A model generated the notes under the pieces. That model did not search any database, was not told the origin of the DNA, and saw nothing but the letters and a program-made list of their open reading frames with translations. A program made the position numbers and the translations under genes. Positions 18,582 to 40,787 of a stretch of DNA of 64,000 bases are shown here, in pieces. This DNA is from Candidatus Rokuibacteriota bacterium (lineage in GTDB: Bacteria; Methylomirabilota; Methylomirabilia; Rokubacteriales; CSP1-6): the NCBI GenBank assembly GCA_016866775.1, contig VGLJ01000022.1:480-64479 (forward strand), in the 5' to 3' direction. How positions within the stretch are numbered: position 1 is the stretch's first letter; the number at the start of each line of letters is the position of its first letter.

Positions 18582-18590
18582 CGTTTCTCC

Positions 18591-22488: not shown

Positions 22489-22672
22489 CCTACGCCCGCC
22501 AACGCGCCGCGCACAAAGCGCGGCCCGGGGTTTGGGTCCTCAGCTGTCGGGCCCCATGGTCAAAGGTACGCGAGGAGGCGGCCGGCGGCGATCACGCCGA
22601 TCCAGAGCACGAGCGACGCCACCGCGGCGGCGCGCGCGGTGATGGGCACCGGCTCGACGAGGACGAGGAAAC

Positions 22673-23473: not shown

Positions 23474-23636
23474 TCGTCGAGGCGAGCGAGCTGCGCGGCG
23501 ATGTCGGGCGCGCCGGCCGGCGGGCGCCAGTCCACGTGGACGACCGTGACGCCCTCGCGCTCGAGCTCCTCCGCGAACAGCTCGAGACCGACGTTGACCA
23601 CGTTCAACGGCCGGCCGAGCAAGCTCGTCAACGCCA

Positions 23637-24707
23637 TCACGTGTCTCCGAGGATCTTCGGCGCCAGCGTCGGATCGAGCGCGAGCGCCGCGAACCGTGCC
23701 GCCTGCGTGTTCGACGGGAGCACCTCCACTCCCGCGTGCTTCAGCGCGTCGATCTGCGCCGCGCGGTCCTGCGGGTCGGCATCCGTCCCGACGACCGACG
23801 CCACCACGCGCAGCGCGCGGCCGTCACGCTCGGCCTCGCGGCGCGCGTCGCCGATCGCCGCGGCGAGTGAGCGCGCCGGATCGGGATGCGCCGCCCGTCC
23901 GAGCACGAGGTCGAGCAGCAGCACTCCGACCCCGGCCGTCCGGCCGGCCTCGCGGACGAGGCCGTCGCGCGCGGACGGATCGATCATCGGATGCGGACGC
24001 CCTCGCGTGAACTCGTCGGCGCCGAGGTCCATGACGCGATGGGCGCTCGTCGCCGCGGTGCCGACGTTCCCGCCGACCGGTCCGATGAGCGGCTCGAGCA
24101 CGAGGCGGGCCTCGTGCGCGAGCGTGCCTCCGGTGTAGAGCGCGAGCAGCCCTGCGCGCGCGTTCGTCACGGCGAGCCGGGCCCGTACGCTGGCGGCATC
24201 GCTGAACGTCGTCGCCCGCCACGCCTGCCTTCGCACCGCCGCAACGGCGGCACCGTCCATGCCGTTCTGGCCGTTCAACCCCGGCGCGCCGTCCTTCCCG
24301 TTCTGACCGGCGGGGCCGGGCGGACCCTGGAGGCCGGCGCCGCCGATCGTGAGGTCCCAGAAGTCCGTCCGGGAGTCGCCGTTGCCCGTCGACACCATCA
24401 GGCGGTAGTCGCCCGGCTGGATGTCGATCGGCAGGCTGGCGGCGACCTGCGTGGGGTGGGCGCTCACGACACCAAGCGGGGACCCCGCGAGCACGACCTG
24501 GGTCGTCCGCTGCCTGCGCGTGAGGTTCACGCCGTTGATGACGATCTGGTGCGCGCCGGCGTCGACGTGAATGCTGCCGATGACGAGATGCTTCTTGTGG
24601 TCGTCGTCGTCATCGGCGTGCGCCACCGGCGCCGCGCCGCCGAGCGCGACCAGGAACGCCACGAGAGCCACGATCACGAGCCGTCCGATCTCCGTCATGT
24701 TCCGCAT
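23637..24707 (-). CDS. chimeric ORF: signal peptide, beta-rich domain, collagen-like (GXY)10 segment, and a C-terminal domain homologous to FdrA residues ~330-486
   Basis: GGAGGAGGAG precedes MRNMTE. Signal peptide LVIVALVAFLVALGGAAPVAHA|DDDDD. Collagen-like run GAGLQGPPGPAGQNGKDGAPGLNGQNGMDG. The tail (GRPHPMIDP...VLLLDLVLG...PSNTQAARFAAL) aligns to the end of the 28506..29966 FdrA protein. Confidence 0.5.
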   Translation of the reverse strand: MRNMTEIGRLVIVALVAFLVALGGAAPVAHADDDDDHKKHLVIGSIHVDAGAHQIVINGVNLTRRQRTTQVVLAGSPLGVVSAHPTQVAASLPIDIQPGDYRLMVSTGNGDSRTDFWDLTIGGAGLQGPPGPAGQNGKDGAPGLNGQNGMDGAAVAAVRRQAWRATTFSDAASVRARLAVTNARAGLLALYTGGTLAHEARLVLEPLIGPVGGNVGTAATSAHRVMDLGADEFTRGRPHPMIDPSARDGLVREAGRTAGVGVLLLDLVLGRAAHPDPARSLAAAIGDARREAERDGRALRVVASVVGTDADPQDRAAQIDALKHAGVEVLPSNTQAARFAALALDPTLAPKILGDT

Positions 24708-24852
24708 CGCCGTCTCCTCCTCTGCCTTGGCCGGTCCGCCCCGGGGGGCCGGCGTTCGTTCCTCGCGACGCGACACGAGTACCGAGGAGGGCGCAAGATT
24801 TCGTCAAAGCCATCGTCAAAAGCTCGTCAAAGGCGGGACGACCGGCTGCTGG

Positions 24853-25557
24853 CTAGGCTGGTCGAGGGCGTCGTGGGCCAGCCACGATAGACACCCCGTC
24901 GAGCGCGCGCAGGAGCCGCTCGCTCTTCGCGACCCAGCCGAAGATGCCGCCCTGGGCTTTCACCATGGCGAGGGCGGCGGCGTGGAGCTCGGGGAAGTAC
25001 GAGGCGACGCAGTCCTCGAGGACCAGGCACTCGAAGCCGCGATCGTTCGCCTCGCGCACGGTCGTCTGCACGCAGACCTCCGTCGTCACGCCCGTCACCA
25101 CGAGGCTCTGCACGGCGAGGCCGCGCAGCCGCGCCTCGAGCTCCGTCGCGTAGAACGCGCCTTTCCCCGGCTTGTCGATGACGAGCTCCTCCGAGGTCGG
25201 GCGGAGCTGGTCGATGATGCGGTGGCCGGGCTCGCCGCGCACGAGGATCCGTCCCATCGGGCCGCGGTCGCCGATGCCCTTCGCCAGCCGCCCGCGCCGC
25301 CGCTTCGACGGCGGGCAGTCGCTGAGATCGGCGGTATGGCCTTCGCGCGTGTGGATGACCTTGAGGCCGCGCGCGCGGAACGCGTCGAGGACCTTGCGCG
25401 TGGGCGCCACGGCGTGCCGGAGGAGCGCGACATTGTTCCCGAGCATCTCGCCGAACCCGCCGCGCTCGAGGAAGTCGCGCTGCATGTCGATCACGAGCAG
25501 TGCGGTCCCGGGGGGATCGCAGACGAACTCGTACGGCTCGGCCTGCACCGTGATCAC
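24853..25557 (-). CDS. isochorismatase-family cysteine hydrolase (RutB / biuret hydrolase / N-carbamoylsarcosine amidase-like)
   Basis: [10 protein letters not shown], the conserved Lys region, and [14 protein letters not shown] with the nucleophilic Cys. GTG start in ATGTGA overlap with the carbamate kinase stop. Confidence 0.7.
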
Positions 25558-26534
25558 ATCTGGAAGGAGAGCTGCATCGCGTCGTTGGGGACGACGAGCG
25601 TGCCGGCGCGGCCGCGCACGCCCTCGAGCGCGTCCTCGAGCGCGCAGATCGTCGCCTGGCCGCCGCCGTCGTGGACGAAGCGATACGCCGCGCGGACCTT
25701 GGGCCCCATGCTGCCGGCGGAGAACGGCTCGCGGACGAGCAGGCCTTCGAGCTCGGAGAGCGTCACCCGGCGGAGAAACTGCTGCGTGGGCTTGCCGAAG
25801 TCGACGGCGACGCCGGGCACGTCGGTGAGGATCAGCAGCGCGGCCGCGCGAACCTCGAGCGCCAGACGCGCCGCCGCCGAGTCCTTGTCGACGACGGCCT
25901 CCACGCCCTCGAACCGCCCGTCCGGGCGGCGCAGCACCGGCACGCCGCCGCCTCCGCACGCGATCACGACCGCGCCGACGTCGAGCAGCGCGTGGACGAC
26001 GTCGACTTCCACGATGCCGAGCGGCTGCGGCGACGGGACGAGCTTGCGCCAGCCGCGCGCGTCGACTTCCGTCCACACCTCGCGCTTGTCGCGCATCCGC
26101 TGCTCGGCCACGGCGCGCGGCAGGAACGGGCCGATCGGCTTCACGGGCGTCGCGAACGCCGGATCGTCCGCGTCGACGAGCACCTGCGTGACGATGCTCG
26201 CGACCGGCCGCGCGAGGCCGCGCGCCCGCAGGGCGTTCTTCAGCGCCTGCTGGATCATGTAGCCGATCTGGCCCTGGGTCTCGGCGCCGCACACGTCGAG
26301 CGGCACCGCGGGCACGAGATGCGACGCGGCCTCGTTCTGGATGAGCAGGGTGCCGACCTGGGGGCCGTTGCCGTGCGTGAGCACGGGCTGGTAGCCCTCG
26401 GCGATGAGCTGCACGATCTGCTCGCACGTGCGGCGGATGTTGTCGTACTGCTCCGTGTAGCTGTTGAGCTGCTTGGATCTCAGGATCGCGTTGCCTCCGA
26501 GCGCGACCACGATGCGATGCTCGTCGAGTCGCAT
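25554..26534 (-). CDS. arcC: carbamate kinase
   Basis: [10 protein letters not shown] and the carbamate kinase signature THGNGPQVG; 326 aa. TGATG overlap with the upstream gene. Confidence 0.85.
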
Positions 26535-27928
26535 CAGCCGGCGAGCGCTTCGAGCGCGGCGGTGAAGCAGCCGAGCGGCGCACGCACCACGCCGGCGCCG
26601 ACCTGGCCCACGCCGGCGACCTTGCTCGCGATGCCGGTGTTGATGATCGGCGCGATGCCGGTCTCCACCACGCGCAGCACGTCGATCCCCGCGGGCGCGC
26701 CACGCTCGTCCAGGCTGGCGATGCGGAAGTGCGGGTGCTCGGCGTGGCAGATCTCGCGCATCGCGTCGGTCGTGGCGAGCGCCTCGGCAACGCCGCCGGC
26801 GCCGAGGAAGCGCGCGACGGCGGGGGAGGCGGCCATCGCGCCGCCGCCGAGCCCGATCGTCTCGACGATCGCGCTGTCCCCCATGTCGGGATTCGCGTCG
26901 TCCGGGCCGTAGCCGGGGAAGTAGAGGCCGACCGGCATCTCGACGGGTGCGACGAACCACCGCTCCCCGAAGTGCGACACGCGGATGCCGAAGTCCGTGC
27001 CGTTGCGCGCCATCGTGGTCACGAGCGTGGAGCCCGGCACGCCGCCCGCCGGATCGACCATCGATTTCCCCGCCGCCATCGCAAGGTTCAGGAAGAACTG
27101 GTCGTGGCCGGCGAGGAACTCGGCGAGGCGCGCGGCGGCGTGATGCCGGTCGGCGACGCGCGCCACGTGCGGCATCAGGGCGCGGACGAACAGCGACGAG
27201 GCCCCGACGTTGCGCTGGTGCATCTCGTCGCCCATCCGGAGCGCCTGCGCCATCAACGGGCGCAGCTCGATGCCCTGGCTCGCGCGCAGCGCGGCGCCGA
27301 ACAGCGGTCCGGCTTCCTGCGCGAGCCAGGTGAGACGCGCGATGACCGACGCGTCGTTCGCGCCGTAGCGCAGCACCTTGCCGAGCCCTTCGTTGATCGT
27401 CACGTGCGCGCGGTTGCCGTGCGCGCGGTTCTCGACGACGAAGACCGGCATCGACGCGGTGAGCACGCCCGCCATCGGCCCGACGGCGCGCCGGTGGTGG
27501 CAGGGCTCGAGCCGCACGTCGCCGCGGACGATCAGTTCGGCGGCCGCATCGTCGTTGGCGGCCCAGCCCTCGTAGCGGATCGCGCAGAGGATCGCCGCGC
27601 GCACCGGCGGCGCCACGCGCTCCCACGCGATCGGCGGCCCCGAGTGGAGGACGAGCCGGTCCGGCAGCTCCATCGCCTCGCGCGCCGGCCGGCAGTCGAG
27701 CAGCACCGGCTCGCCGTTGACGAGGATGTCGAACGCGCGCTGGTTGGCGGCGTCGATCTCCGCGCGTCGCGTCTCCAGGCGCGCGAGGAGCGCGGCGAGC
27801 GTCGCGTCACCGCCCGCGGGCGGGCGCCAGTCCACGCCGACCACAGGGACGCGAAGCTGCGCCAGCGCGTCGGCGAAGAGATCGAGGCCGACGTTCACGA
27901 CGCGCGGCGGGTTCGGCAGCGCGCTCAT
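26534..27928 (-). CDS. DUF1116 (YlbE/AllG-like) protein
   Basis: ~464 aa starting [18 protein letters not shown]. Placed between FdrA and carbamate kinase, as in the E. coli fdrA-ylbE-ylbF-ybcF arrangement. The family assignment rests on size and context. Confidence 0.5.
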
Positions 27929-28509
27929 TCGAGCTCCAGCGCGAGGTCGCTCACGCGAAACCCGCTGATCGGATTCAGGTCCATCGGGCACGCGCTGACC
28001 GCCGCGACGAGGTCGATCAGCGCGCGCAGCTCGACGACGTCGCCCGGCTTCGCGAGCGACTCCAGCCACTCGGCCCGGCCGTCGACGTAGCGCATGTGCT
28101 GGAAGAAGTTCACGGGTTGCGGCAGCTGGTGCCGCGCGCGCGCCCACGGCGCGAGGACTTCGAGGAAGTTGTCGGAGCAGTTGCGGTGGCCGGTGACGCC
28201 GAAGTCCAGCTCGTAGCGCCACGGGTCGCACGCGGAGATGAGCATGTCGTGCCGGCCCGTGTCGTCGCGCGTGATCTCGACCATCGGCCGCCGCCGGTTC
28301 GTGCGGAGCCGGTCGCCCGTGGTCGGGAACAGCCGCTGGAGCGAGACGAGCGTGTGCAGCGTGCTGAGCGACTCGTCGAGATCCGCCGCGTTGAACGCGA
28401 CGAAATCCGCCACCTGCTTGCCCTGCACGTTGACGATGCGCATTCGCTGCCCCGCGCGCAGCGTGACGGCACGCGCGGTCGTCGCGGGAATCTCGATGCG
28501 CTGGCTCAT
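27925..28509 (-). CDS. DUF1989 (urea-carboxylase-associated family) protein
   Basis: 194 aa starting MSQRIEIPATTARAVTLRAGQRMRIVNVQGKQVADFVAFNAAD...RDDTGRHDMLISACD. The pattern is recalled for TIGR03424/03425-type proteins. ATGA overlaps on both sides. Confidence 0.45.
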   Translation of the reverse strand: MSQRIEIPATTARAVTLRAGQRMRIVNVQGKQVADFVAFNAADLDESLSTLHTLVSLQRLFPTTGDRLRTNRRRPMVEITRDDTGRHDMLISACDPWRYELDFGVTGHRNCSDNFLEVLAPWARARHQLPQPVNFFQHMRYVDGRAEWLESLAKPGDVVELRALIDLVAAVSACPMDLNPISGFRVSDLALELE

Positions 28510-29966
28510 CCGCGGGCCTCCGAGGCGCGCGCGGCGATCAGCGCCGCGAGCCGTGCGGCCTGCGCGTTCGACGGCATGACGATGACGCCCGCCCGCGCGA
28601 GGGTCGTTGTCTGGCGTGCGAGCCCTTGGGGATCGCCGTCGGTGCCGCACACGCTCGCCACGACGGCGACGCCTTCACGGCGCGCCCGCTCGATGGCGGC
28701 AAGCAGCTCACCGGCGGGATCGGGATGTGCGCCGTAGCCGAGCACGACGTCGAGCAGGATCACGGCGGTCGTCGGATCGGCGGCGTCCTTGACGATCCAC
28801 TCCCGGCGGATCGTGCCGTCGATCATCGGATGCGGGCGCCCGACGGTGTACGCGTCGTCGCCGAGGTCCACCACGCGGTGACCGCCGGGCAAGAGCGCGG
28901 CCGCCTCTTGCGCGAGCGTCCCGCCGGCGTACACGCCGCGCACGAAGCGACGGCCACTGCTCAACGACGCCGCTGCATCCGTGACCAGGCGCGCGACGTC
29001 GTCGTTCGGGATGGTGAAGCCGACCGGCCGATGCCGCTCGCCACGCGCGAGCGCGACGGCGGCGTGCGCGGTGTCTTCCAGCGTGGAGACGCCGCCGGTG
29101 AAGTGCGCGATCCAGGGCTTGCCGAGCGCGGCGAGCCAGCCGTCGATCTTCTTCGCGGTCATCGGACCCGGCGGCTTGCCGATGACGCAGATCACCGACG
29201 TCGCGGGATCGGCGGCGAGCGCCGCGAGCGCCGGCTCGAGCATCAGACCGCCGACGTCGTCGGAGAGGTCGCGACCGCCGAGCCCGATCGCGTGCGAGAC
29301 GCCTTCACCCGCCGCGGCGAGGTGACACGTCACCGCCTGGAGCCCCGTGCCCGACGCCGCGGCGATCCCGATGCGGCCGCGCGGCACCGCGTTCGCGAAG
29401 CCGAGCGGCACGCCGCCGAGGATCGCGGTCCCGCAGTCGGGCCCGAGCGCGAAGAGCCCGCGCTCGCGCGCGAGCTGCTTGAGCCGGACTTCGTCGGCGA
29501 CCGGCACGTTGTCGCTGAAGACCATCACGTGCAGCCCGGCGGCGAGCGCCTTCGTCGCCTCCGCCGCGGCGTAGACGCCGGGTACGGAGATCAGCGCGAG
29601 GTTCGCGTCGGACAGCGCCGCCATCGCCAGGCGCAGCGAGCGGCGGCGCACGACGCCGCTGATGGACGGCCCGCCGCCGCCACCTCCGCGTGACGCGCGC
29701 GCGAGGGCGTCCTCTCCCGCCGCCCATGCGGCGCGCGCGGCGTCCTCGCGCTCGGCGACCACCGCGACGACGAGATCCGTCGGGCGCGCCGCCTCACCCT
29801 CCGCGGTGAGCAACCCGGCGTCACGCAGCAGCGCCAGGTTGTGCGGCGTGCCCATCATCGCGGCCGCGCGTGTGACGCCCGTCACCGCCTCCATGTCCCG
29901 GCTGAGGCGCATCAGCGTCACCGAGTCGTGATACGCGCCGCGCCGGACGAGGTTCCAGACGGGCAT
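28506..29966 (-). CDS. fdrA: FdrA/AllF-family protein (acyl-CoA synthetase NDP-forming / succinyl-CoA synthetase alpha-like)
   Basis: 486 aa. SCS-alpha-like GPDCGTAILGGVPLGF, a Gly-rich CoA-binding region, and a C-terminal GRPHPMIDG...PSNAQAARLAAL. Confidence 0.7.
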   Translation of the reverse strand: MPVWNLVRRGAYHDSVTLMRLSRDMEAVTGVTRAAAMMGTPHNLALLRDAGLLTAEGEAARPTDLVVAVVAEREDAARAAWAAGEDALARASRGGGGGGPSISGVVRRRSLRLAMAALSDANLALISVPGVYAAAEATKALAAGLHVMVFSDNVPVADEVRLKQLARERGLFALGPDCGTAILGGVPLGFANAVPRGRIGIAAASGTGLQAVTCHLAAAGEGVSHAIGLGGRDLSDDVGGLMLEPALAALAADPATSVICVIGKPPGPMTAKKIDGWLAALGKPWIAHFTGGVSTLEDTAHAAVALARGERHRPVGFTIPNDDVARLVTDAAASLSSGRRFVRGVYAGGTLAQEAAALLPGGHRVVDLGDDAYTVGRPHPMIDGTIRREWIVKDAADPTTAVILLDVVLGYGAHPDPAGELLAAIERARREGVAVVASVCGTDGDPQGLARQTTTLARAGVIVMPSNAQAARLAALIAARASEARG

Positions 29967-29970
29967 CGCG

Positions 29971-30747
29971 TCAGGTCGTGCGGCTGTACGGAAGATACGT
30001 GCGGCCGGTCCCGCTGCCGCCGTCCACCGCCATGACGTCGCCGGTGATGAAATCGGCCTCGGGCGAGGCGAGGAAGAGCGCCGCGCGCGCGATGTCCGCC
30101 GGCGTGCCGGCGCGGCCCCAGGGAATGGTGCCGACGAGCGTCTTCACGTACTCGTCGGACACCTGGGTCACGTCGCGATCGACGGTGACGAGCCCCGGCG
30201 CGATGCAGTTCACGTTGACGTGGTGCGGTCCGAGCTCCATCGCGAGCACCTTGGTGAACATCACCACGCCGGCCTTCGACGCGCAGTAATGCGCCGCGCC
30301 CTTGCGTCCGCTGCTCGCTGCGCCCGAGGCGATCGTGATGATCTTGCCGCCGCCGCGCGCCACCATCCCGCGCGCCGCCGCCTGGCAGGTGAGGAAGACG
30401 CCGCGCAGGTTCGTCTCCATCACGCGGTCCCACTCGTCGACGCTCATCTCCACGACGGGGCAGTTCGGATAGATCCCGGCGTTGGCGACCGCGATCGCCG
30501 GCGGACCGATGGCGCTCTCGGCCGCGCGAAAGAGCGTGCCCACGGACGCCGCGTCGCGCACGTCGACGGTCTGCGTGAAGATGCGCGACGACCGGCCGAG
30601 CCGCTCCGCGGCGGCGGCGAGGCCGCGCTCGTCGACGTCGCCGAGCGCGACACGCGCGCCCGCCTGGTGAAACGCCTCGGCGATGCCGAACCCGATGCCG
30701 GCGGCGGCGCCGGTGACGAGCACGGACTGGCCGGTGAAGTCGTGCAC
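29971..30747 (-). CDS. SDR-family short-chain dehydrogenase/reductase
   Basis: TGAAAGIG Rossmann motif, NAG, and the catalytic YxxxK (YCASK). Confidence 0.85.
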   Translation of the reverse strand: MHDFTGQSVLVTGAAAGIGFGIAEAFHQAGARVALGDVDERGLAAAAERLGRSSRIFTQTVDVRDAASVGTLFRAAESAIGPPAIAVANAGIYPNCPVVEMSVDEWDRVMETNLRGVFLTCQAAARGMVARGGGKIITIASGAASSGRKGAAHYCASKAGVVMFTKVLAMELGPHHVNVNCIAPGLVTVDRDVTQVSDEYVKTLVGTIPWGRAGTPADIARAALFLASPEADFITGDVMAVDGGSGTGRTYLPYSRTT

Positions 30748-30754
30748 GATCGGA

Positions 30755-31996
30755 TCAGCCCTTGCGGCCTTCGCCGGGCTTCGTCGCGTTCACGAGCACC
30801 GCCATGTTCCCGTACGGGTGCTTGTTGTCGAGCATGAGCTGATGGCACTCCGGAATGGCGTCGAACCCGTAGGTCTTCGAGAGACACGGATCCACGTGCC
30901 CGTCGGCGACGAGCTTCGTCACCGCGGCGGCCTGCTCGTCGTTCGACAGGTGGCTGCCCTGGAAGCGCTTCTGCCGCATCCAGTGATAGCGGAGGTCGAG
31001 CGTCACGTTGTACCCCGTCGTGCCGGCGCAGATGACGATCATGCCGCCCGTCGCGCACACGAACTCGGACGTGGGCAGCGTGGACTCGCCGGGATGCTCG
31101 AAGACGATCTTCGGGCTCTCGCGCGTGCCGAGCGCGTCCCAGATCGCCTTGCCGAACGCGCGCGCGCCCTTCGCCCACTCGCCGTACGCCTTGGCGTCGG
31201 TGGTGTCCGGCATCTTGCCCCAGTGCGTGAACTGGCTCCGGTTGATCACGCCGACGGCCCCGTGATCCATGCAGAACTTCTTCTTCTCGTCGTCGGACAC
31301 GACCGCGATGGGCCGGCCGCCGAGCGCGCGCGTGATCTCGAGCGCCAGCGAGCCGAGGCCGCCGGCGGCGCCCCACACGAGCACGATGTCGTTCTTCTCG
31401 ACGGTGTGCGGCGACCACCCCATCAGCATCCGGTACGCGGTCGACGCGCAGAGGAGGAAGCAGCCCGCCTCCTCCCACGTGAGGCGCGCCGGCTTCGGCA
31501 CGCACTGGTGCGCCTGCGCGCGCGCGAACTGGCCGTAGCTGCCGTAGTTGGTCTGGTAGCCCCAGATGCGCGTGGACTCCGCGAGCATCGGGTCCTTGCC
31601 CGACTTCACCCACGGGTCGTCGGGCCGCCACCAGCCCGAGTGCACGATGACCTCGTCGCCGACGCGGACGTTCTTCACGTCCATGCCGACGGCCCACACG
31701 ATTCCCGAGCAGTCGCTGCCGCCCGCGTGGAAGTCTTCCGGCTCGCCGAGCTTCTGCCGCTCCGCGATGACGTCGAGCGGGTAGCCGAGCGCCGCCCAGA
31801 CGTTGTTGTAGTTGATGCCGGAGGCCATCACGTAGATCAGCACCTCGTCCGGACCGAACGACGGCGTGGCGATCACCTCGCGCTTCCACGCGTCGCGCGG
31901 AGGACCGAACCGGTTCTGGCGGACCATGTACGCGTGCATCTGCTTCGGGACCTCGCCCAGCGGCGGGCGCTGACCGGGATCGTAGAGGTCTGGCAT
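30755..31996 (-). CDS. ccr: crotonyl-CoA carboxylase/reductase (Ccr)-family enoyl-CoA reductase/carboxylase
   Basis: 413 aa. N-terminal [16 protein letters not shown] and [17 protein letters not shown] closely match the Ccr signature; MDR fold. Confidence 0.75.
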
Positions 31997-32013
31997 CGAA
32001 CTCTCCTGGATGC

Positions 32014-32847
32014 TCAGCGTTGTTTCGTCACGTTCGTCCTGCGCGGCGGGCGCTCGCCACGGCGCGCGAGCTCGCCCGCGGCGCCGATCGCTTCTCGCTC
32101 AGCCTTGACGCTCGGCCATCCGAGCGACCACCAGCCGATGCCGACGACGTCGACCCAGTCGCGGCAGGGGATGCCCGCGCGCTCGAGGTAGAACGCCGCG
32201 AGTTCGTCGGCCTCGCGCTCCATCGCCACGAGGTCCAGGTGCGGCCGCCGCAGGTGTCCGAGCGCGACGTGGGCGATTTCGTGGGCGATGAGACGCGCCA
32301 GCAGCACCCGGCGCGCCGGCCATTCGCGCATCTCGTGCAGCACCCGCGCGTTCACGACGATGGTGAACGCGTCCGCGTCGCCGCACGCGAGCCTGGCCGC
32401 GTCGCGCAGATCGTCCACGATCACGAGGCTGCGGTCGCGCGGCAGATCGCCGTGCGCGACGGCCGCGATGCGCTCGTAGGTGTCGATGACGTCGGCGTCG
32501 TAGGGGGTGCGGACCGCGCGCGCACCCGGGCGGCAGAGCGTCCCGGTCCAGTTGTCCAGTGGCGTGAACGTCGTCGCTGGCCGCGCGGCCGCGGCCTGAC
32601 GGATCTGCTCGCGGTGCGCGACGAGGATGCACGCCTCCCATGCCTTGAACTCGTCCGGCGCCGTGCCCGTCGCGTCGAGCTCACCCTCGGGCGTGATCCG
32701 AAGCAGCCGGACGCTCGGGAACCGGTCGCATTGCTTCCATCGCGCCCACGCGAGATCTTCCGCCCGGGTCCGTGCGTGACCGGCGCAGCCGGCGGCGAGC
32801 GTCGCGGCGACGAGGACCAGGCCGATCGCGCGGGCGGCGTTACCCAT
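32014..32847 (-). CDS. lipoprotein with an HExxH zinc-metallopeptidase motif
   Basis: Lipobox LAAGC after a signal peptide. [12 protein letters not shown] motif. Confidence 0.55.
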
Positions 32848-33856
32848 TGAACTCCCTCACGAGACGGGACAGGCGAGGATCGCCGAGGCCGGGCTGGTAC
32901 GGCTGGTAGAGCGCGGTCCGGTCGAGCAGCCCTGCGTAGCGCTCCGCGATCTTCCGGCCGATCGTGTCGTACGTTCCGGTGACCGCGTACGTGTCGACCA
33001 TCTCGTCGGTGATCAGATCGGCCATGCCCTTCCAGTCACCCTCGACCGACTTCCGGTGCAGGTGCGGGATCAGGTCCTGCCAGCCGTGCGCGGCGAGGAC
33101 GGGCTCGTAGGTACGCGTCGAGCCGTAGAACGCGATCTGCTGCTTCACCGACTGCGTGTTCTTCTGGAGCTCCTGCTCCGTGTCGCCCACGACGACGAAG
33201 GTCGCCGTCGTGTACGTGAAGTCCTCGCGCGTGCGGCCGGACTTCGCCATGCCCTCCGCGACCCACGGGTGCACGGACTCGCGCAGGTACTTCGGGCTGT
33301 TGAAGGGATGCACGTGGAGGCCGTCGCACACTTCGCCGGCGACGCGGCACATGTACGCGTTGACGCCGGAGATCATCACCGGGATCTTCGGGTGCTCGAT
33401 CGGGCCCGGGTTGAAGAAGGGTGTCATCAGGTCGAAGCGGTAGAACTGCCCCTTGAAGTTCAGCTTCGTCCCGTTCTGCCAGCAGTCCCAGATCGCGCGC
33501 AGCGCGAGCACGATCTCGCGCAGCTTCGGGCCGGGCGACTCGTACTTCACGGAGAAGCGGCGCTCGTTGTGGCCCTTCACCTGCGAGCCGAGCCCGAGGA
33601 GCAGCCGGCCGTTCGACGCCTTCTGGATGTCCCAGGCGATGTGCGCGGTGATCATCGGGCTGCGCGGGAACGCGACCGCGATCGCCGTGCCGAGCTTGAT
33701 CCGGTCCGTACATGTCGCGGCGACGGCGAGCGGCAGGAACGGGTCGTGCTGCGTCTCCGACGACCACAGGCAGTCGAAGCCGAGCGCTTCGACCTTCCGC
33801 GCGTAGTCGGGGATCGACGTGAGATCGTGCGTCAGCATGCCGACGTCGAGCTTCAT
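32840..33856 (-). CDS. LLM-class (luciferase-like) flavin/F420-dependent oxidoreductase
   Basis: 339 aa from MKLDVGMLTHD. TIM-barrel LLM pattern (GFDCLWSSETQHDPFLPLA, LGLGSQVKGHNE). ATGA overlap with the upstream stop. Confidence 0.7.
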   Translation of the reverse strand: MKLDVGMLTHDLTSIPDYARKVEALGFDCLWSSETQHDPFLPLAVAATCTDRIKLGTAIAVAFPRSPMITAHIAWDIQKASNGRLLLGLGSQVKGHNERRFSVKYESPGPKLREIVLALRAIWDCWQNGTKLNFKGQFYRFDLMTPFFNPGPIEHPKIPVMISGVNAYMCRVAGEVCDGLHVHPFNSPKYLRESVHPWVAEGMAKSGRTREDFTYTTATFVVVGDTEQELQKNTQSVKQQIAFYGSTRTYEPVLAAHGWQDLIPHLHRKSVEGDWKGMADLITDEMVDTYAVTGTYDTIGRKIAERYAGLLDRTALYQPYQPGLGDPRLSRLVREFNG

Positions 33857-34977
33857 GGGTCTCCTCTGCCGAGCCGCCCCAGGGCGGCGAGGACCTCGCG
33901 CGCCTCGCGCACGATCGCCTCGACGACCTCGCCCGCGCCCGGGACGTTGTGGACCAGGCCCACGGCCTGGCCGGCGTACATCGGAAAGTACTCGCCGTCC
34001 TGGCGCTTCGCCGCCGCGGCGAAGACGTCCTGCGCGGCCACCGCCTGGAGCAGGCTCGGCAGCGTCGGCGCCCCGGCGGCACGATACTCCACCGCGAAGG
34101 TGTTGCGGAGCGCCCGCGCCCACTGGCCGGTGAACGCGTCGGTGACCATCGTGGCGTCGGCGTCGCGCTCGAGCAGACTCTTCTTGTAGAACTCCGACGC
34201 CGTCGACTCGCGCGTGGCGACGAAGCGGGTGCCGAGCAACACGCCCTGCGCGCCGAGCGCGAGCGCGGCCACGAGGCCACGGCCGTCGGCGAGCCCGCCC
34301 GCGGCGACGACCGGGACGCGCACGACGTCGACGATCTGCGGCACGAGCGCCATCGTGCCGACCATCGCGACCTCGGGGTGGATCGGCTTCGCGGCGATGG
34401 AGCGGTGCCCGCCCGCCTCGCCGCCCTGCGCGACGATCGCGTCGACCCCGGCCGCGGCGGCGTCGCGCGCGTCCTGGACGGTGGCGACCATCGCGACGAC
34501 CTTCACACCGCGCGCGTGACAGCGCGTGACCATGTCGGCGCTCGGCAGCCCGATCGCCGCGCTGAAGACCGGCACGCGCTCCTCGAGGATCACCTCGAGG
34601 GCCGCGTCGACGAGATCGGGCGCCGGCGGTGGCGCCGCGGTGACCGCGGGGACGTCGAGGCGTGCCCGGAACGTGTTCAGCGTCGCGTGGACCTGCGCGA
34701 TCGTCGCGGGCGGGATCGTCGTGACGTCGACCGGCGGACGCAGTTCGCTGTGGAGCCAGAGGTTCACGCCGAACGGCCGGTCGGTGTGCGCGCGGATGAA
34801 GCGGATGCGCTCGCGAATCGCGTCGGGCGGCTGGTTGAGGCCGCCCACGATGCCGAGGCCGCCGGCGCGCGAGACCTCCGCCGCGAGGTCGGGCCCCGCG
34901 ACGCTGCCCATCCCCGACTGGAGGACCGGGTACTCGATGCCGAGGAGATCACACAGGGCGGTGCGCAAGCGCATCAC
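33853..34977 (-). CDS. nitronate monooxygenase / 2-nitropropane dioxygenase-family FMN oxidoreductase
   Basis: YPVLQSGMGSVAG and AQGGEAGGH motifs; 374 aa. Confidence 0.7.
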   Translation of the reverse strand: MMRLRTALCDLLGIEYPVLQSGMGSVAGPDLAAEVSRAGGLGIVGGLNQPPDAIRERIRFIRAHTDRPFGVNLWLHSELRPPVDVTTIPPATIAQVHATLNTFRARLDVPAVTAAPPPAPDLVDAALEVILEERVPVFSAAIGLPSADMVTRCHARGVKVVAMVATVQDARDAAAAGVDAIVAQGGEAGGHRSIAAKPIHPEVAMVGTMALVPQIVDVVRVPVVAAGGLADGRGLVAALALGAQGVLLGTRFVATRESTASEFYKKSLLERDADATMVTDAFTGQWARALRNTFAVEYRAAGAPTLPSLLQAVAAQDVFAAAAKRQDGEYFPMYAGQAVGLVHNVPGAGEVVEAIVREAREVLAALGRLGRGDP

Positions 34978-36629
34978 GGGAACTCCTTCGAACGTGAAGG
35001 CCCCACGTCATACAGGCGCGCCTCCGGCGCGACGGACCCCCACACCCCCTCCATTGCCATCTCGCGCAGCTTCACGCGCTGGACCTTCTCGCCGTGCGGG
35101 CTCGGCGTGCGCGGCACGTCGCGCACGAACCTCACACCGCGCGGAATCTTGTACGAGGCGATCTTGCCGCGGCAGAACGCCAGCAGCGCCGGTTCGTCGA
35201 GCCGCGCGCCGTCCTTCAGGATCACGTAGGCGACCGGGACCTCGTTCGCCTTGGGATCGGGGATGCCGACCACGAAGGCCTGACTCACCGCGGGATGCGC
35301 CATCAGGAACGCCTCGATCTCACCGGGCGCGACCATGTGGTGGCTGATGCGCAGCGTCTCCTTGAGCCGTCCCTTGAAGAAGACGTACCCGCGCGCGTCG
35401 CGCACGCCGAGATCGCCGGTCTTGAACCATCCGTCGTCGGTGAACGCGGCGGCCGTTTCCTTCGGCTTCTCGTAGTAGCCGCGCGTCACCAGCTCCCCGC
35501 GGAACTGCAGCTCGCCTTCCTCGTCGGCCTTGCACACCACGCTCGTGTCCGGGTGCGCGATCCGCGCCTCGATCCCCGGTGGTGTCTTGATCCCCGACTG
35601 GACCCGCAGCTCCCACGGCTCGTCGAGCTCGTGCAGCAGCGACAGCGCGTTCACCTCGGTCATGCCGTACGGCTGGTACATCTCCGGCACGACGATCCGG
35701 TCGCGGATCGCCTCGAAGAAGCCGTGGCCGCCGCCGCCCGTCGCCGCGAACGCGCCGGTGCGCAGCGACGAGCGATCGAACCGGTCGAGGGCGGGATGCT
35801 CGAGCAGCGGGAACACCATCGAGTCGACGGCGTTCATGACCGTGCAGCGCTCGCGCTCGACGAGCTGCAGCGCGCGCAGCGGATCCCAGACGTCCAGGAG
35901 CACGAGGCACGCGCCGTGCGACCACGTCGTCAACGGAATGTTCACGCCGCCCCACGTCCCGGCGGCGGGCAGGGCGTGGAGCACGCGGTCGCGCTCGGTC
36001 ATCCGCAGCCACGCGCCGCAGTTCCAGCCGTGCGGCACGCAGTTCCGGTGCGTGATCATCGCGCCCTTCGGAAACGAGGTCGTGCCCGAGGTGTACAAGA
36101 TCGTGAACACCTCGTCGTTCTCGGCGACGTCTTCCAATCTCGTGCACCCAGCGTAGGGATCTTCGGCGTCCACGATCACGTGACGCAGCTTCGGGAACTT
36201 CGGTGCGTCCAGCTCGCCCGGCGTTCCATGCTTCAGCTCGGGGATCACCTCTTCCAAGATCTCGACGTAATCAACCGGGCCGAGGTGATCGGTCAGGACC
36301 AGCGCCTTGGCGTCCGATTGCCCGAGGATGTACGTCAGCTCGTGGGAACGGTAGCGCGGGTTCAGCGCGACCAGCACGGCGCCGATTCTTGCGCAGGCCT
36401 GTTGCACCACGAACCACATGGGGCGGGTCGGCATCCACAAGGCGATCGTGTCGCCGGGGCCGAAGCCGAGTGCCGACAGGCCGCGAGCGAGGCGATCGGC
36501 ACGATTCCGGAAGTCCCGGAACGTCACGCGGTCGTCGTTGAAGACCATCGCTTCACGATCGGGGAAGCGGGCGGCGATCGCGTCGAGCATCGTGGCGGCC
36601 GTCGCCTCGGCGAGCGGGTTCACGCGCAC
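34974..36629 (-). CDS. AMP-dependent acyl-CoA synthetase/ligase
   Basis: AMP-binding motif TSGTTSFPKGAMITHRN, YGMTE, and the A8/A10 region GDLGVRDARGYVFFKGR...IASYKIP. GTG start 5 nt after the upstream TAG. Confidence 0.8.
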   Translation of the reverse strand: MRVNPLAEATAATMLDAIAARFPDREAMVFNDDRVTFRDFRNRADRLARGLSALGFGPGDTIALWMPTRPMWFVVQQACARIGAVLVALNPRYRSHELTYILGQSDAKALVLTDHLGPVDYVEILEEVIPELKHGTPGELDAPKFPKLRHVIVDAEDPYAGCTRLEDVAENDEVFTILYTSGTTSFPKGAMITHRNCVPHGWNCGAWLRMTERDRVLHALPAAGTWGGVNIPLTTWSHGACLVLLDVWDPLRALQLVERERCTVMNAVDSMVFPLLEHPALDRFDRSSLRTGAFAATGGGGHGFFEAIRDRIVVPEMYQPYGMTEVNALSLLHELDEPWELRVQSGIKTPPGIEARIAHPDTSVVCKADEEGELQFRGELVTRGYYEKPKETAAAFTDDGWFKTGDLGVRDARGYVFFKGRLKETLRISHHMVAPGEIEAFLMAHPAVSQAFVVGIPDPKANEVPVAYVILKDGARLDEPALLAFCRGKIASYKIPRGVRFVRDVPRTPSPHGEKVQRVKLREMAMEGVWGSVAPEARLYDVGPSRSKEFP

Positions 36630-36634
36630 GTCGG

Positions 36635-37474
36635 CTACTCCAGCTTGAAGAGCGCGGCCGCGTTCTTCGACGCCACGCGCTCGGCCACCTCGGGCTTGAT
36701 CTCGCCGAGGATCCGTCGTGTCCACGCCATCAGCTTGTCCAGCGTGGGCGGCTCGAACAGCCGGGGCGCCCAGACGTCGATGCCCATCAAGAACCGGTCG
36801 CCGTGCTTCTCGATGACCGCCTTCCACGCGGGATCGAGCGGCCCCGTCTCCGTGGCGAGCGCGGGCTTGCGCTGGAAGTGCATCCCCGAGAGATCGAAGA
36901 AGAGGTTCGTGTTGCGCGCCAGCAGCCCCTCGACGCGCGCCGGCGGCCCTTCGCCGCCGTGCGCGATGACGACCGTGGTCTTGCGATGCGCGGCGAGCGC
37001 GGCCTCGAGCTGCTTCGCGGCGGCGTCGGTGAGCTCCAGGTGGATGATCACCGGCACGCCGCGGCTCGCCGCGAGCTCGAACAGCTTGCCGAACCTCGCC
37101 GGGTCGCGGTCGATCTTGCGGCTGACCTGGCGGCCGTGGACTTCGCCGAGCGCGCGCGCCTTCAGCGCGTCGAGCGCCTCGGCCGCCTTCGCGACGCCGG
37201 CGTCCGACGGATCGGCGACGGGCGCGCCGGGCACGACGACCCCCGGATGCTTCTTCGCCGCGGCCGCGATCCAGGCGACGTCGTCCTTCTGCACGCCGCC
37301 GACGCCGAGGAGCAGCACGCGCGTGACGTTGTGCTTCTTCATCGCCGCCACGTACGCGTCGACGGCCGTGGCGTTCGGCACGTGACCGTGCGCGTCGATG
37401 ATCGGGCCCCGGTACTCGGCCGCCGACGCGACCGACGCGGCGAGCAGGAGCAGGACGGCGGCGAAGGGAATCAC
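36635..37474 (-). CDS. secreted amidohydrolase_2 / TIM-barrel metal-dependent hydrolase
   Basis: GTG start, then signal-like MIPFAAVLLLLAASVASA|AEY, then IDAHGHV and HLEL. The stop is TAG. Confidence 0.55.
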   Translation of the reverse strand: MIPFAAVLLLLAASVASAAEYRGPIIDAHGHVPNATAVDAYVAAMKKHNVTRVLLLGVGGVQKDDVAWIAAAAKKHPGVVVPGAPVADPSDAGVAKAAEALDALKARALGEVHGRQVSRKIDRDPARFGKLFELAASRGVPVIIHLELTDAAAKQLEAALAAHRKTTVVIAHGGEGPPARVEGLLARNTNLFFDLSGMHFQRKPALATETGPLDPAWKAVIEKHGDRFLMGIDVWAPRLFEPPTLDKLMAWTRRILGEIKPEVAERVASKNAAALFKLE

Positions 37475-37623
37475 GAGGACTTCTTGAAGTGCGCGGAGAG
37501 CTTCTCCATGAGGATGGCGAGGGCTTCCTTCTCGGTGCGGCCGGTCGCGGTGACGTCGTGCTCCACCGCGGTGGCGACCCACTCCCCGACTTCGTTCTTG
37601 TAGACCTCGACCTCGAACTTCAC
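37471..37623 (-). CDS. HicB/UPF0150-like antitoxin-fold mini-protein (50 aa); not in the ORF track
   Basis: GTG-start VKFEVEVYKNEVGEWVATAVEHDVTATGRTEKEALAILMEKLSAHFKKSS. The TGA overlaps the amidohydrolase GTG (GTGA). No HicA partner is seen. Confidence 0.4.
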   Translation of the reverse strand: MKFEVEVYKNEVGEWVATAVEHDVTATGRTEKEALAILMEKLSAHFKKSS

Positions 37624-37638
37624 GCGACGAGAGTAACA

Positions 37639-37684
37639 CCGAGGGGGGCCGCGAGCATCGAGGGGGCCCTCGACGGCCCTACGG
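37639..37684. repeat. GC-rich repeat, family 3, copy 2 (degenerate)
   Basis: CGAGGGGGGCC-GCGAGCATC-GAGGGGGCCCTCGACGGCCC, related to 56261-56308. It includes the palindrome TCGAGGGCCCCCTCGA right after the Rieske stop. Confidence 0.6.
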
Positions 37685-37987
37685 CAGCTCGATCAAGACC
37701 TCCCCGCCTTCGACCACGACCGGATAGACCGGAACGCGAGCGTCGCGTGCGGGAGCGCGGCAGGCGCCCGTCGTCAGGTCCCAGACCCAGCCGTGATACG
37801 GGCACGTGACCGCGCCGTCCGCGACCGTCCCTTCGCTGAGCGGGCCGCCGGCGTGCGGACAGTTCTCCGCGAGCGCGTGGACCGTGTCGCCGCGCCGGAC
37901 CAGCGCGATGCGCCGGCCGTCCACTACCAGCAGGACGGGGCGATCGACGGGAAGCGCGTCGAGGCGCCCGGCGGCGAGACGAGGCAT
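37679..37987 (-). CDS. Rieske [2Fe-2S] domain ferredoxin (NirD-like small subunit)
   Basis: CPHAGGPL...CPYHGW (CxH-x17-CxxH); 102 aa; TAG stop. Confidence 0.85.
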   Translation of the reverse strand: MPRLAAGRLDALPVDRPVLLVVDGRRIALVRRGDTVHALAENCPHAGGPLSEGTVADGAVTCPYHGWVWDLTTGACRAPARDARVPVYPVVVEGGEVLIELP

Positions 37988-38071
37988 GCCGCTACTCTAC
38001 GGGTCTCTCGTGCTAGGCTCACCGCCGAAGTGCGGGACCGGAAATCTCCTGCCGTTCCGCTGACGATCGCG

Positions 38072-40787
38072 ATGCTGGGCGGGTTCGAGGCGCGCGTCGG
38101 TGACGAGGGGCCTCCCGTCGTGCTGGCCAAGCGCAAGGCCCAGGCGCTGCTCGCGTATCTCGCGGTCCCGCTGGGCCAGCCGCACCCGCGCGAAGAGCTG
38201 GCGACCCTCCTCTGGGGCGACGTCGACGACAGCGACGCGCGCAACAGCCTGCGGCAGACGCTCTTCCTGATCCGCCGCGCGCTCCCGGACGGCGCCGCCG
38301 CCTATCTCGAGGTCGGGCGCGACACCGTCGCGCTGTCTTCCACCGCCGTCCGCACCGACGTCGCGCGCTTCGAGCGCCGCCTCGCGGCCGGGGCGCCGGA
38401 CACGCTCGAGCGCGGGATCGAGCTCTACCGCGGCGATTTCCTCCACGGGTTCGCGCTCGACGAGGCCGGGTTCGAGGAGTGGATGACCGCCGAGCGGGAG
38501 CGTCTGCGCGGCCTCGTGCGCGGCGCGCTCTCGCGCGTGCTCGCGCGGTACGCGGACGCGGGCGACGTCGCGCGCGCGCTCGAGGTCGGGCGGCGCGTCC
38601 TCGCCCTCGATCCGCTCGACGAGCCGGCGCATCGCGCGCTCATGCGGCTGCACGCGCGCCGGGGCCACCACGCGGCGGCGCTGCGCCAGTACCAGCTCTG
38701 CGTGAGCGTGCTCGAGCGGGAGCTCGAGGTCGAGCCCGACGCCGAGACGCGCGAGCTTTACCGGACACTCGTCCGCGAGCGCGCCGCGCAGCGCGTGCCC
38801 GAGCTCGCGCTCGGCGAGCGCGACCCGGTGGAGACGGCGCTGATCGGACGCGACGTCGAGTTGCGGCGCCTCGAGGACGCCCTCGCGGGCGCCGCGCCGA
38901 GTGTCGTCGCGATCCTCGGTGACGCCGGCATCGGCAAGACGCGGCTCGTTCGCGAGTTCACGGCGATGGCGACGGCCGCGGGCCGCCGGGTCATCGTCGG
39001 CCGCTGCCACGACGCGGAAGGGATCCAGCCGTTCCGTCCGTGGGTCGAAGCCCTGCGCGGCGCCGGCCTGACGGCCGACGACACCGCGCTCGCGGCGCTC
39101 GCGCCGGCGTGGCGCGCGGAGCCGGCGCGTCTCTTCCCCGAGCTCTCGACCGAGACGCCGGCGGCCGTCGACACGGAGAACGTTCTCCAGCTCTTCGAGG
39201 CGCTCGCACGGCTCATCCTCGACGCGGCCGCGCGCGCGCCGCTCGCGATCGTGCTCGAGGACCTCCAGTGGGCGGACGAGATGACGCTGCGGTTCCTCTC
39301 CTTCCTCGTCCATCGCAGCGGGGACCGTCCGATCCTCCTCGCGGCGACCGCACGCGAGGACGAAGCGGAGCAGGTCCCGCTCCTCGGACGCATCGCGCGC
39401 GAGCTCGACCGCGAGGGCCGGCTGCTGCGCGTTCCGCTCGCGCCGCTCGGGCGCCCGGCGAGCGACGCGCTCGTCGCGGCGCTCGCGCCGTCCGCCACCG
39501 GCGACGCGGCGCTCGCCGAGCGCGTGTGGAGCGTGAGCGAGGGCAATCCGCTCGTCGCGGTCGAGATGATCCGTGCCGCGCGCTCGCTCGGCGGGGACTT
39601 GCCGGAGCTTCCACGCGGCGGAAGCCTGGGAGCCGGCGGTGGAGCACCTGCGCGAAGCGGGACTCACGGCGTATCGGCGCGGCGGGTCTCGCGAGGCCGC
39701 CACGTGCTTCCGGCGCGCGCTCGACGCGCACGCGCGCCTGCCGCGCACGGATGACTGGAAGCGCGCCGCCATCGATCTCCGCTTCGACTTCCGCCACGCC
39801 GTGGTGCCGATCGCCGAGATGGCGGACCTCGGTGACCTGCTCGGCGAGTGCGAGCGCTTCGCCACGGAGCTCCACGATCGCCCGCGGCTCGCGCGCACGT
39901 GGGCATTCCTCGGGCATCACCACTGGTGGTTCGGCGGCCACGAGCGTGCCGCCGACTATTGCCGTCGCGCGCTCGGTGTCGCGAGCGCTCAGGGCGACCG
40001 TGCCCTTCAGATCTCGACGACCATGTATCTCGGCCTCGCGTTCCTCGCGCAGGGCGCCTATCGCGCGGCGGAGCGCCTCTTCCGCGCGCTGGTCGGCAGC
40101 GAAGGCAGCGGCCTCACGCGCGAGCGGTTCGGGGTGGCGATCGTCGGCGTGTCCTCGCGCGCCTACCTCGCGATGGTCCTGGCGGAGATCGGCGACCTCG
40201 CGGAAGGCGCGGCCGTGGCCGACGACGCCGTGCGGCTCGCCGAGCCCATGCGACACCCGTTCGCGCTCGCGCACGCCTACGTCGGGGCGGCGTCGGTCGC
40301 GCTCGCGGCGGACGACCACGACCGCGCGATCCGGCTGTTCGAGTGGTATCAGGCGGAGCTCGCCCGCATGGGGGCAGGCGAGGCGTGGCCGCTCGCCGAC
40401 TGGTATGCGGGCCTCGCGTACGTCCGCGCGGGCCGCGTCGAGCGCGGCTTGGCACTCCTCGAGCCGATTCGCGATCCGGCCCGCGCGGTGACGGGCGGGC
40501 TGAGCCGCTCGCTGGTCGGCGCCTGGGTCGCCGAGGCCCACCTCGCGGCGGGACATCCCGTCGAGGCGCTGACCTTCGCGGAGTCGGCGCGGGCGCTCGC
40601 CCACGAGCACGGGGAGCGCGGGTACGAGGCGGCGGCGCTGCTGGTGCTGGCCGACGTCACGGCCCGGCGTGACCTCGCGGCCGCCTCGGAGCACTACACG
40701 GCCGCGCGGAAGATCGCCGCGGAGCTCGGCATGCGCCCGCTCGCCGCGCGGTGCGCCAGGGCGGAAGCCGCCCTGGTCGGTCCCTGA
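38072..40787 (+). pseudogene. AfsR/SARP-like STAND regulator (winged helix, BTAD, P-loop NTPase, C-terminal TPR-like repeats) with one frame break
   Basis: LLGGFEARV...LAYLAV (OmpR/SARP wHTH), a BTAD region, and the Walker A GDAGIGKT. The frame changes at ~39600-39615 between ORF 37793..39754 and ORF 39573..40787, which carries the TPR-like tail. Confidence 0.65.

Follow-up and report, generated by a model that had tools for sequence, protein, structure and literature searches.

The 64,000-nucleotide (nt) stretch of Candidatus Rokuibacteriota DNA analyzed here (the window; positions 480 to 64,479 of contig VGLJ01000022.1) carries on its minus strand a closely packed string of genes. Its upstream half, at 29971-37623, encodes a crotonyl-CoA carboxylase/reductase family enzyme (Ccr), a luciferase-like F420-type oxidoreductase (LLM) and an acyl-CoA synthetase among others, and its downstream half is a cassette of AllF/FdrA-type genes. 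A first reading, made from the letters and the open reading frames (ORFs) and hereafter called the sequence-only reading, had taken the whole, about 16 genes, as one unit for the catabolism or tailoring of an unusual carboxylic or ureido compound. Genes were called by codon-position G+C (the window is about 71% G+C) and each junction was checked on the sequence, which gave the following features, listed from the 5' side of the string onward:

38030-39754, plus strand: BTAD/AAA_16 regulator, divergent, bordering the string on its 5' side
37679-37987, minus strand: Rieske [2Fe-2S] ferredoxin, 102 amino acids (aa), Pfam Rieske 63 bits; outside 29971-37623
37471-37623, minus strand: small ORF, 50 aa, third-position G+C (GC3) 0.94
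36635-37474, minus strand: Amidohydro_2 hydrolase, 279 aa, Pfam Amidohydro_2 65.8 bits
34974-36629, minus strand: acyl-CoA synthetase (ACS), AMP-forming, 551 aa, AMP-binding 254 bits plus AMP-binding_C
33853-34977, minus strand: FMN-dependent oxidoreductase like nitronate monooxygenase (NMO) and FabK, 373-374 aa, Pfam NMO 259 bits
32840-33856, minus strand: LLM, 338 aa, TIGR03617 443.8 bits
32014-32847, minus strand: HExxH protein, 277 aa, M48 19.7 bits against a cutoff of 20.3
30755-31996, minus strand: Ccr, 413 aa, TIGR01751 533.3 bits
29971-30747, minus strand: classical SDR, 258 aa, adh_short_C2 207 bits
28506-29966, minus strand: AllF/FdrA, downstream of and outside 29971-37623
22673-29966, minus strand: the whole AllF cassette, AllF/FdrA to AllH, families from Pfam; outside 29971-37623

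The genes of 29971-37623 are co-directional, as first described, but they number eight rather than nine; the ninth is the Rieske gene, which lies beyond the interval. From the small ORF to AllF the junctions measure -4, +5, -4, -4, -8, +17, +7 and +4 nt (the ACS/NMO junction becomes -1 nt if NMO starts at its ATG), in good agreement with the gaps of 0-18 nt and coupled starts noted before, and the string does continue into the FdrA module, with AllF/FdrA 4 nt after the SDR. All eight ORFs of the interval have a coding-type composition, with GC3 of 0.90-0.96 and G+C higher at first than at second codon positions, and no module stands out by base composition. Seven of the eight family assignments made from the letters agree with Pfam and NCBIfam; the HicB-like peptide does not, the small ORF having only a weak match to DUF7387.

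The Rieske gene, 55 nt upstream of the small ORF, is likely the first gene of the string, and 29971-37623 would lie in the promoter-proximal portion of the string. The minus strand is common to 22 consecutive genes (19311-37987), a run that would have a probability of about 0.5^21 if orientation were random, and from the tight spacing we infer that the string is likely co-transcribed in this organism. A scan of 21000-38500 for sigma-70 promoters and intrinsic terminators found no promoter and five terminator-like sites, where 4.2 would be expected; none of the five is on the strand of the string. The -24/-12 pattern of sigma-54 matched 31 times against 45 expected, never upstream of the string, so that neither scan shows anything beyond chance.

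Gene order across Rokubacteria species

Using Ccr as the anchor, we compared all window proteins against 80 species genomes with 10-kb flanks, which belong to several phyla and in which Ccr is 74-89% identical. The closest of these by Ccr are Candidatus Rokubacteria/Methylomirabilota metagenome-assembled genomes (MAGs) at 82-89% identity, while the Acidobacteria and Proteobacteria of the clade stand at 74-80%. Synteny was assessed in the 40 Rokubacteria species (Ccr 82-89% identity); 19 of their loci extend 7 kb or more upstream of Ccr and were informative for the upstream genes. Across these approximately 40 loci the recurrent order begins with TenA/PqqC-like, Rieske, HbpS-like, small ORF, CoA-transferase III, Amidohydro_2, (ACS) and (NMO) genes, and continues with (an HxlR/MATE/thioesterase insert), LLM, (enoyl-CoA hydratase), Ccr, (MDR dehydrogenase), (histidine phosphatase) and PFK. 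LLM is present in 18 of the 19 informative loci, CoA-transferase III in 14, the small ORF and Amidohydro_2 in 12 each, NMO in 10, ACS in eight and Rieske in 10 (as well as in the close relatives L170, L175 and L176 described below). In none of the 40 other Rokubacteria species does Ccr have the HExxH gene, the SDR gene or any member of the AllF module nearby, and the divergent BTAD/AAA_16 regulator is likewise absent from these 40 loci, its arrangement recurring in L170 and L176.

The closest relatives, identified here by the handles of their loci, form a graded series:

L170/L171 (about 91% nt identity): gene order complete, BTAD regulator through isochorismatase, with a Bmp/ABC transporter in convergent orientation next to it
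L173/L174 (about 84% nt identity): Amidohydro_2-ACS-NMO-LLM-HExxH-Ccr-MDR, without SDR or AllF
L175 (LLM 91% aa identity): LLM-Ccr-DMT_6-AllF-AllG, without HExxH or SDR
tSgY9ZFh (LLM 89% aa identity): HicB-type antitoxin and DUF1841 after Ccr, without AllF
L176 (LLM 88% aa identity): Ccr-SDR, an opposite-strand insert of about 6.7 kb, then AllF
L087 (SDR 84% aa identity): Ccr-DMT_6-SDR-ApbA-AllF-DUF1989-AllG...AllH
L088/L090 (AllF about 83-87% aa identity): integrase fragments directly 5' of AllF, and AllH...DUF6644-PFK downstream

Since close relatives carry different inserts immediately 3' of Ccr, this position is a variable (recombination) hotspot, and the AllF cassette, with the SDR arriving with it or after it, was placed there in one sub-lineage. 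The SDR itself, confined to the sub-lineage with the AllF cassette, occurs in L170/L171 (95% identity), L087 (84%) and L176; L175, L173/L174 and the 40 species loci lack it. AllF relatives at greater distance (40-76% identity, those at 60-76% included) have different surroundings, in which Ccr, ACS, NMO and LLM are missing. The HExxH gene is a separate and earlier lineage-restricted insertion, at the place where other species have the hydratase. The insert of L176 is made up of toxin-antitoxin genes (HigB/HTH and ParE-like), genes for binding proteins and two pieces of integrase genes. Between the SDR, or the start of the contig, and AllF, toxin-antitoxin genes and tyrosine-recombinase (integrase) fragments occupy L176:13172-19591 and L090:3262-4104, which makes the Ccr-AllF junction a recombination hotspot.

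From about 50 related genomes we therefore read the string as a mosaic, with a probability of roughly 0.7: an old LLM-Ccr neighborhood to which the HExxH gene, the SDR and the AllFGH/carbamate-kinase cassette were recently added, and not one pathway of about 16 genes. The oldest layer, found across the phylum, would consist of the Rieske, DUF7387-like, Amidohydro_2, ACS, NMO, LLM and Ccr genes, with CoA-transferase III and the hydratase lost here; in a second layer the rare HExxH lipoprotein would have been inserted between LLM and Ccr; and in a third the SDR and the AllFGH/carbamate-kinase (oxalurate-type) cassette would have landed in the hotspot 3' of Ccr. The two halves have separate histories and most probably separate substrates.

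Within the oldest layer, LLM-(hydratase)-Ccr is the sole near-universal core, and one that is often translationally coupled. LLM stands beside Ccr in 37 of the 40 Rokubacteria species, directly in 24 (with a 1-4 nt overlap in 12) and with one gene between them, usually the enoyl-CoA hydratase, in 13; a stop-start overlap of the two is also seen in L175, L176 and tSgY9ZFh. The hydratase directly precedes Ccr in 16 loci, and its family is represented in 13 Rokubacteria loci and 10 loci of other phyla. All matches in the LLM homologue search have at least 82% identity, and those with a named source come from Rokubacteria, Methylomirabilota or NC10. A literature search found no earlier description of the pairing.

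The string could alternatively be a single catabolic operon in which all of the approximately 16 genes serve one carboxylic or ureido compound and both halves process one carbon skeleton. In its favor are the continuity of the string, whose junctions stay between -8 and +17 nt even where Ccr, SDR and AllF adjoin (+7 and +4 nt), the same order in L170/L171 at about 91% nt identity, and the presence of AllF within 2.5 kb after Ccr in L087 and L175. The two halves are, however, combined in none of the 40 other Rokubacteria species; the joint between them is interrupted by toxin-antitoxin/integrase DNA in L176 and L090, and one side of it is missing in L173/L174 and tSgY9ZFh; and the characterized AllFGH/AllK system works without CoA-ester enzymes (PMC11326118). 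We consider this explanation distinctly improbable. What stands of the single unit first proposed is an operon-like string; as an evolutionary or functional unit it is not supported, its joints being broken in L173-L176 and its full gene order recurring in L170/L171 only. A ureido compound suits the downstream AllFGH/carbamate-kinase cassette and not the genes of 29971-37623 (PMC11326118).

Several observations nonetheless weigh against the mosaic or against a common purpose for its oldest layer. The whole 14-gene order has been kept in a second species-level lineage (L170/L171), and the gaps at the Ccr/SDR/AllF borders are as short as those within modules, so that the halves may cooperate in this clade. 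Collinearity among Rokubacteria reaches past the string, via PFK to homologues of the window genes at 13240-14025, 12721-13230 and 8238-8900, and shared gene order within the phylum therefore says little for a single pathway even in the old layer. In other phyla the Ccr clade keeps none of these neighbors except the hydratase and sits among unrelated genes; ACS and NMO are independently dispensable, and the amidohydrolase is likewise present or absent from species to species. In addition, the CO2 pocket of the clade has Gln in place of Glu (see below), which makes this Ccr a putative carboxylase.

It could be argued that Ccr serves a central ethylmalonyl-CoA-type route and that its companions in the collinear segment are functionally unrelated to it. 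The Acidobacteria and Proteobacteria enzymes (74-80% identity) do lie among peptidases, transporters and IclR genes, and an exported hydrolase and a lipoprotein would be unable to reach cytoplasmic CoA esters. Such an arrangement would leave unexplained the LLM/Ccr overlap in 12 species and the fact that the two, where paired, are never more than one gene apart (usually the hydratase), as well as the several translational couplings in the window; moreover, the variable neighbors are rich in CoA-thioester enzymes (CoA-transferase III, ACS, hydratase, 4HBT thioesterase and MDR). We regard it as unlikely. The enrichment and the LLM-Ccr coupling support a CoA-ester theme for the old layer; the case for a single pathway even within the upstream half is weak, given that ACS and NMO are independently dispensable, that the amidohydrolase and the lipoprotein presumably act outside the cytoplasm, and that clearly unrelated genes share in the collinearity.

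Ccr, LLM and the proposed chemistry of the old layer

Ccr scores 533.3 bits against the TIGR01751 equivalog (cutoff 378.55), over profile positions 4-395 of 398, and its best matches among solved structures are AntE (529 bits) and the Ccr of M. extorquens (MeCcr; 456 bits), with Streptomyces-type Ccrs at about 230-240 bits; by these scores it is a genuine member of the Ccr family. In KsCcr the CO2 pocket is formed by N81, F170, E171 and H365, the F170Y variant is fully active (Tyr occurs naturally at this position), and E171A keeps 97% carboxylation with a 17-fold decrease in kcat (PMC6628652). Aligned to CinF (N77/F166/E167), AntE and MeCcr, the pocket of the window Ccr reads Asn, Tyr, Gln and His. 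The same Gln is found in the window and in 85 of 86 sampled members of the clade (the remaining one has Arg), a sample that was partly picked by a peptide pattern that includes the Gln motif. A carboxylase function for the window protein is likely on these residues. In our own reading of the alignment, the pocket positions occupied by A182 and V350 in AntE are both Leu, and because Leu/Leu is bulkier than Ala/Val, the pocket would favor a short substrate such as crotonyl-CoA.

AntE supplies an extender unit in antimycin biosynthesis, and a combination of ACS, SDR and Ccr resembles extender-unit cassettes. Together with the position of AntE as best solved match, this might suggest a biosynthetic cluster in which Ccr makes an alkylmalonyl-CoA extender unit for a polyketide. 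However, neither the string nor the 10-kb flanks of the 40 related loci contain a polyketide synthase (PKS) or nonribosomal peptide synthetase (NRPS) gene, the Leu/Leu pocket is bulkier than the Ala/Val of AntE, and conservation of the clade at 74-89% across phyla is typical of core metabolism. We therefore rejected the extender-unit cluster, to which we give next to no credence; a check for a biosynthetic cluster had been proposed in the sequence-only reading, and nothing PKS/NRPS-like was seen.

The LLM belongs to TIGR03617 (443.8 bits against a cutoff of 278.15) and has the Bac_luciferase fold (225 bits). We know of no TIGR03617 member with a known substrate, and a full-text literature search for the accession found no paper. 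Searches of solved structures with ACS, NMO and LLM gave family-level matches only and no clue to a substrate.

The substrate of the old layer and the order of its reactions can be sketched from the gene families, and what follows is what we infer from them. A carboxylic acid would be converted to its CoA thioester by ACS (or by CoA-transferase in relatives), flavin/F420 oxidoreductases would adjust the redox state to give an enoyl-CoA, and Ccr with NADPH would reductively carboxylate or reduce this enoyl-CoA. A more specific version, which we consider speculative and rather unlikely, is that LLM, the hydratase and the Gln-variant Ccr form an undescribed F420-linked entry to reductive carboxylation. 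LLM would then act as a 3-oxoacyl/3-hydroxyacyl-CoA oxidoreductase in place of the NAD(P)H-dependent PhaB/Hbd, and the hydratase would yield the enoyl-CoA that Ccr carboxylates, the thioester coming from ACS or CoA-transferase III. F420 biosynthesis genes have been reported in Rokubacteria genomes (PMC8498797). If this version is true, TIGR03617 would receive its first function, and F420 would be tied to CO2-fixing CoA-ester metabolism outside Actinobacteria.

Other genes of the string and its surroundings

ACS falls below every substrate-specific (equivalog) NCBIfam cutoff; the core motifs TSGTTSFPKG, YGMTE and GWFKTGD can be read in its translation. Among solved structures, the NMO comes closest to FabK and to nitronate monooxygenases (150-175 bits). 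For the amidohydrolase, a metal hydrolase of the Amidohydro_2 family, no solved homologue was found at E<=0.01. Its hydrophobic N-terminus, which ends in an AxA-type site, and its HxH motif are kept in all 17 aligned homologues; given the conservation of the N-terminus and the site, it is probably exported.

The 50-aa small ORF is a real gene, as seen from its GC3 of 0.94, the overlap of its stop with the next start by 4 nt (GTGA), and its 16 homologues at 48-70% identity. Fifteen of these 16 homologues match DUF7387 weakly and none matches HicB; the DUF7387 match of 25 bits lies below the cutoff of 27.9. HicB models gave no match to it at E<=1, DUF1902 came up at E=0.1, and no HicA-like ORF adjoins it; a HicAB toxin-antitoxin pair was accordingly rejected, the small ORF being without a HicB match and no toxin gene being adjacent. 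Its profile retrieved only designed coiled coils from the PDB, and a single-sequence AlphaFold2 (AF2) model, a helical hairpin, was judged unreliable and not used for a fold search.

The HExxH protein, whose signal sequence ends in LAAGC, is a probable lipoprotein. It has five homologues among 5.8 billion clusters, and a profile search retrieved 157 of 1.84 billion representatives. These relatives are bimodular, with an N-terminal domain of about 100 aa, also found alone, and a C-terminal HExxH domain; H189, E190, H193, E210 and three or four Cys are invariant or nearly so. Weak M48 matches occur in 15 of 30 relatives. An AF2 model (pLDDT 81.5) found no Foldseek match in the PDB at E<=1e-3, and the weak top matches were the zinc peptidases BepA and HtpX. 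The protein is best described as an orphan, distantly M48-like, putatively exported metalloprotein.

The AllF cassette consists of AllF/FdrA, DUF1989, AllG, carbamate kinase, an isochorismatase-family hydrolase, a chimeric Ligase_CoA ORF, a 56-aa ORF like the AllG N-terminus, and AllH. AllF was recognized by its domains (HMA_AllF_N/Ligase_CoA), AllG scored 298 bits, AllH 79.6 and the carbamate-kinase-type AA_kinase 98, and the cassette appears to be of the oxalurate type. The chimeric ORF (23637-24776, minus strand; 356-379 aa) combines a signal peptide, collagen-like Gly-X-Y repeats and an FdrA-type Ligase_CoA domain. The 56-aa ORF (23470-23640, minus strand) follows it, and a similar pair of AllF and mini-AllG is present in L089. 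The two may be what is left of a second AllF/AllG copy, or else a pair of subunits that is a genuine variant.

Between AllH and PFK, a 54-aa ORF (22560-22724, minus strand) resembles the DUF6644 protein of L090 (77% identity over 31 aa) and is apparently a remnant of the His_Phos-DUF6152-DUF6644 block that occupies this place in relatives. The phosphofructokinase (PFK) gene (21241-22488, minus strand), downstream of AllH, has an in-frame TAG at 22192-22194; the L090 orthologue, intact at 409 aa, reads CAG (Gln) at this codon. Elsewhere the gene is 93-95% conserved, and the identical TAG is present in the independently assembled contig L001. The TAG reflects either a recent nonsense mutation or read-through.

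A GAF-domain sigma-54 activator (19311-20630, minus strand) closes the same-strand run. It was rejected as the regulator of the string, at whose 5' end no -24/-12 site is found. The best -24/-12-like site, CGGCATGGCCCTTGC (18659-18673, minus strand), has two mismatches, in a pattern whose frequency is not in excess of chance, and stands upstream of a small ORF at 18339-18611 and RND efflux genes, not of the string studied here. A second luciferase-like gene (45888-46724, minus strand) is a distant paralogue of LLM (27-29% identity), and a homologue of it is located in L015, on the upstream side of the cluster.

The source is an uncultured lake population of Rokubacteria (Methylomirabilota). 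An identical Ccr protein is carried by ten contigs of JGI lake metagenomes. One of them, L001 (34 kb), on which BTAD and AAA_16 domains are also recorded, matches the window at 100% identity across 20 kb, one indel excepted. In the ACS gene, L001 (5767-5868) and L003 share a 102-nt in-frame insertion that is absent from the window (site near 36128), L002 and L005. The insertion has the form of a perfect inverted repeat of 28 bp (GGCGCGGGGGTCGGGGGGATGCCCGGCC ... reverse complement) with a GTCGCCG direct repeat on both sides, and resembles a small palindromic mobile element for which the population is polymorphic. The Rokubacteria-type LLM-Ccr block was also encountered in L024, L025, L028, L031, L034, L043, L044 and L174, which were deposited as other taxa (Verrucomicrobiia, Nitrosotalea, Bifidobacterium, Dormiibacterota, Binatia, Limnocylindria and Terriglobales); these are probably Rokubacteria contigs mis-binned in public MAGs.

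Comparison with known systems

The string is a caution for the interpretation of gene spacing, since short intergenic gaps made two unrelated modules seem one 16-gene pathway and comparative genomics parts them. Three leads follow from it: an uncharacterized Ccr subclade, conserved at 74-89% in several phyla, whose CO2 pocket has Gln; the conserved pairing of Ccr with an F420-type LLM in Rokubacteria, an uncultured soil and freshwater phylum; and a recombination hotspot 3' of Ccr that captured an AllFGH/carbamate-kinase cassette. The enzymes are fresh members of known families, only the Gln-variant Ccr clade and the pairing with the TIGR03617 LLM being mildly novel, and no lead overturns current knowledge.

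The window Ccr is a full-length protein of the MDR fold, like the known enoyl-CoA carboxylases/reductases (the Ccr of the ethylmalonyl-CoA pathway, AntE, CinF and KsCcr). It shares with them the Asn and His of the CO2 pocket, and its Tyr at the Phe170 position is that of AntE and MeCcr; it differs in its Gln, where all four characterized enzymes have Glu (E171 in KsCcr, E167 in CinF). The Ccr of the ethylmalonyl-CoA pathway differs also in its genetic context, as the Rokubacteria Ccr couples to the TIGR03617 LLM and not to mutase, epimerase or mesaconyl-CoA genes. None of ethylmalonyl-CoA mutase/epimerase, methylsuccinyl-CoA dehydrogenase, mesaconyl-CoA hydratase or malyl-CoA lyase was recognized among the 68 window ORFs, some of which were scanned against Pfam, or in the 10-kb flanks of related loci, and a literature search for Rokubacteria with ethylmalonyl-CoA or crotonyl-CoA found nothing relevant.

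The window LLM has the luciferase-like class in common with the known F420-dependent enzymes Mer, Fgd and hydroxymycolic acid dehydrogenase, and its nearest solved relatives are Mer enzymes (57-71 bits). The NMO is a TIM-barrel FMN enzyme of the NMO/FabK family, but it falls far below the cutoff of the FabK equivalog (249 against 453 bits) and is expendable in about half of the related loci. Flavoenzymes of this type include the steroid-ring enoyl-CoA reductase IpdC. With the M48 peptidases HtpX and BepA the HExxH protein shares the motif itself, a downstream Glu and predicted export, while its additional N-terminal domain of about 100 aa and the tiny size of its family set it apart.

In E. 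coli, AllFGH and carbamate kinase (the allFGHK operon) form the oxamic transcarbamylase system, which requires no CoA-ester enzymes (PMC11326118). The window cassette is like it in having the three subunit genes and a carbamate kinase gene in one cluster, and unlike it in the addition of DUF1989, the isochorismatase-family hydrolase, a second Ligase_CoA fragment and the mini AllG-like ORF. E. coli has allECD, whereas the window cassette is preceded by an SDR and lies beside Ccr, in a variable hotspot.

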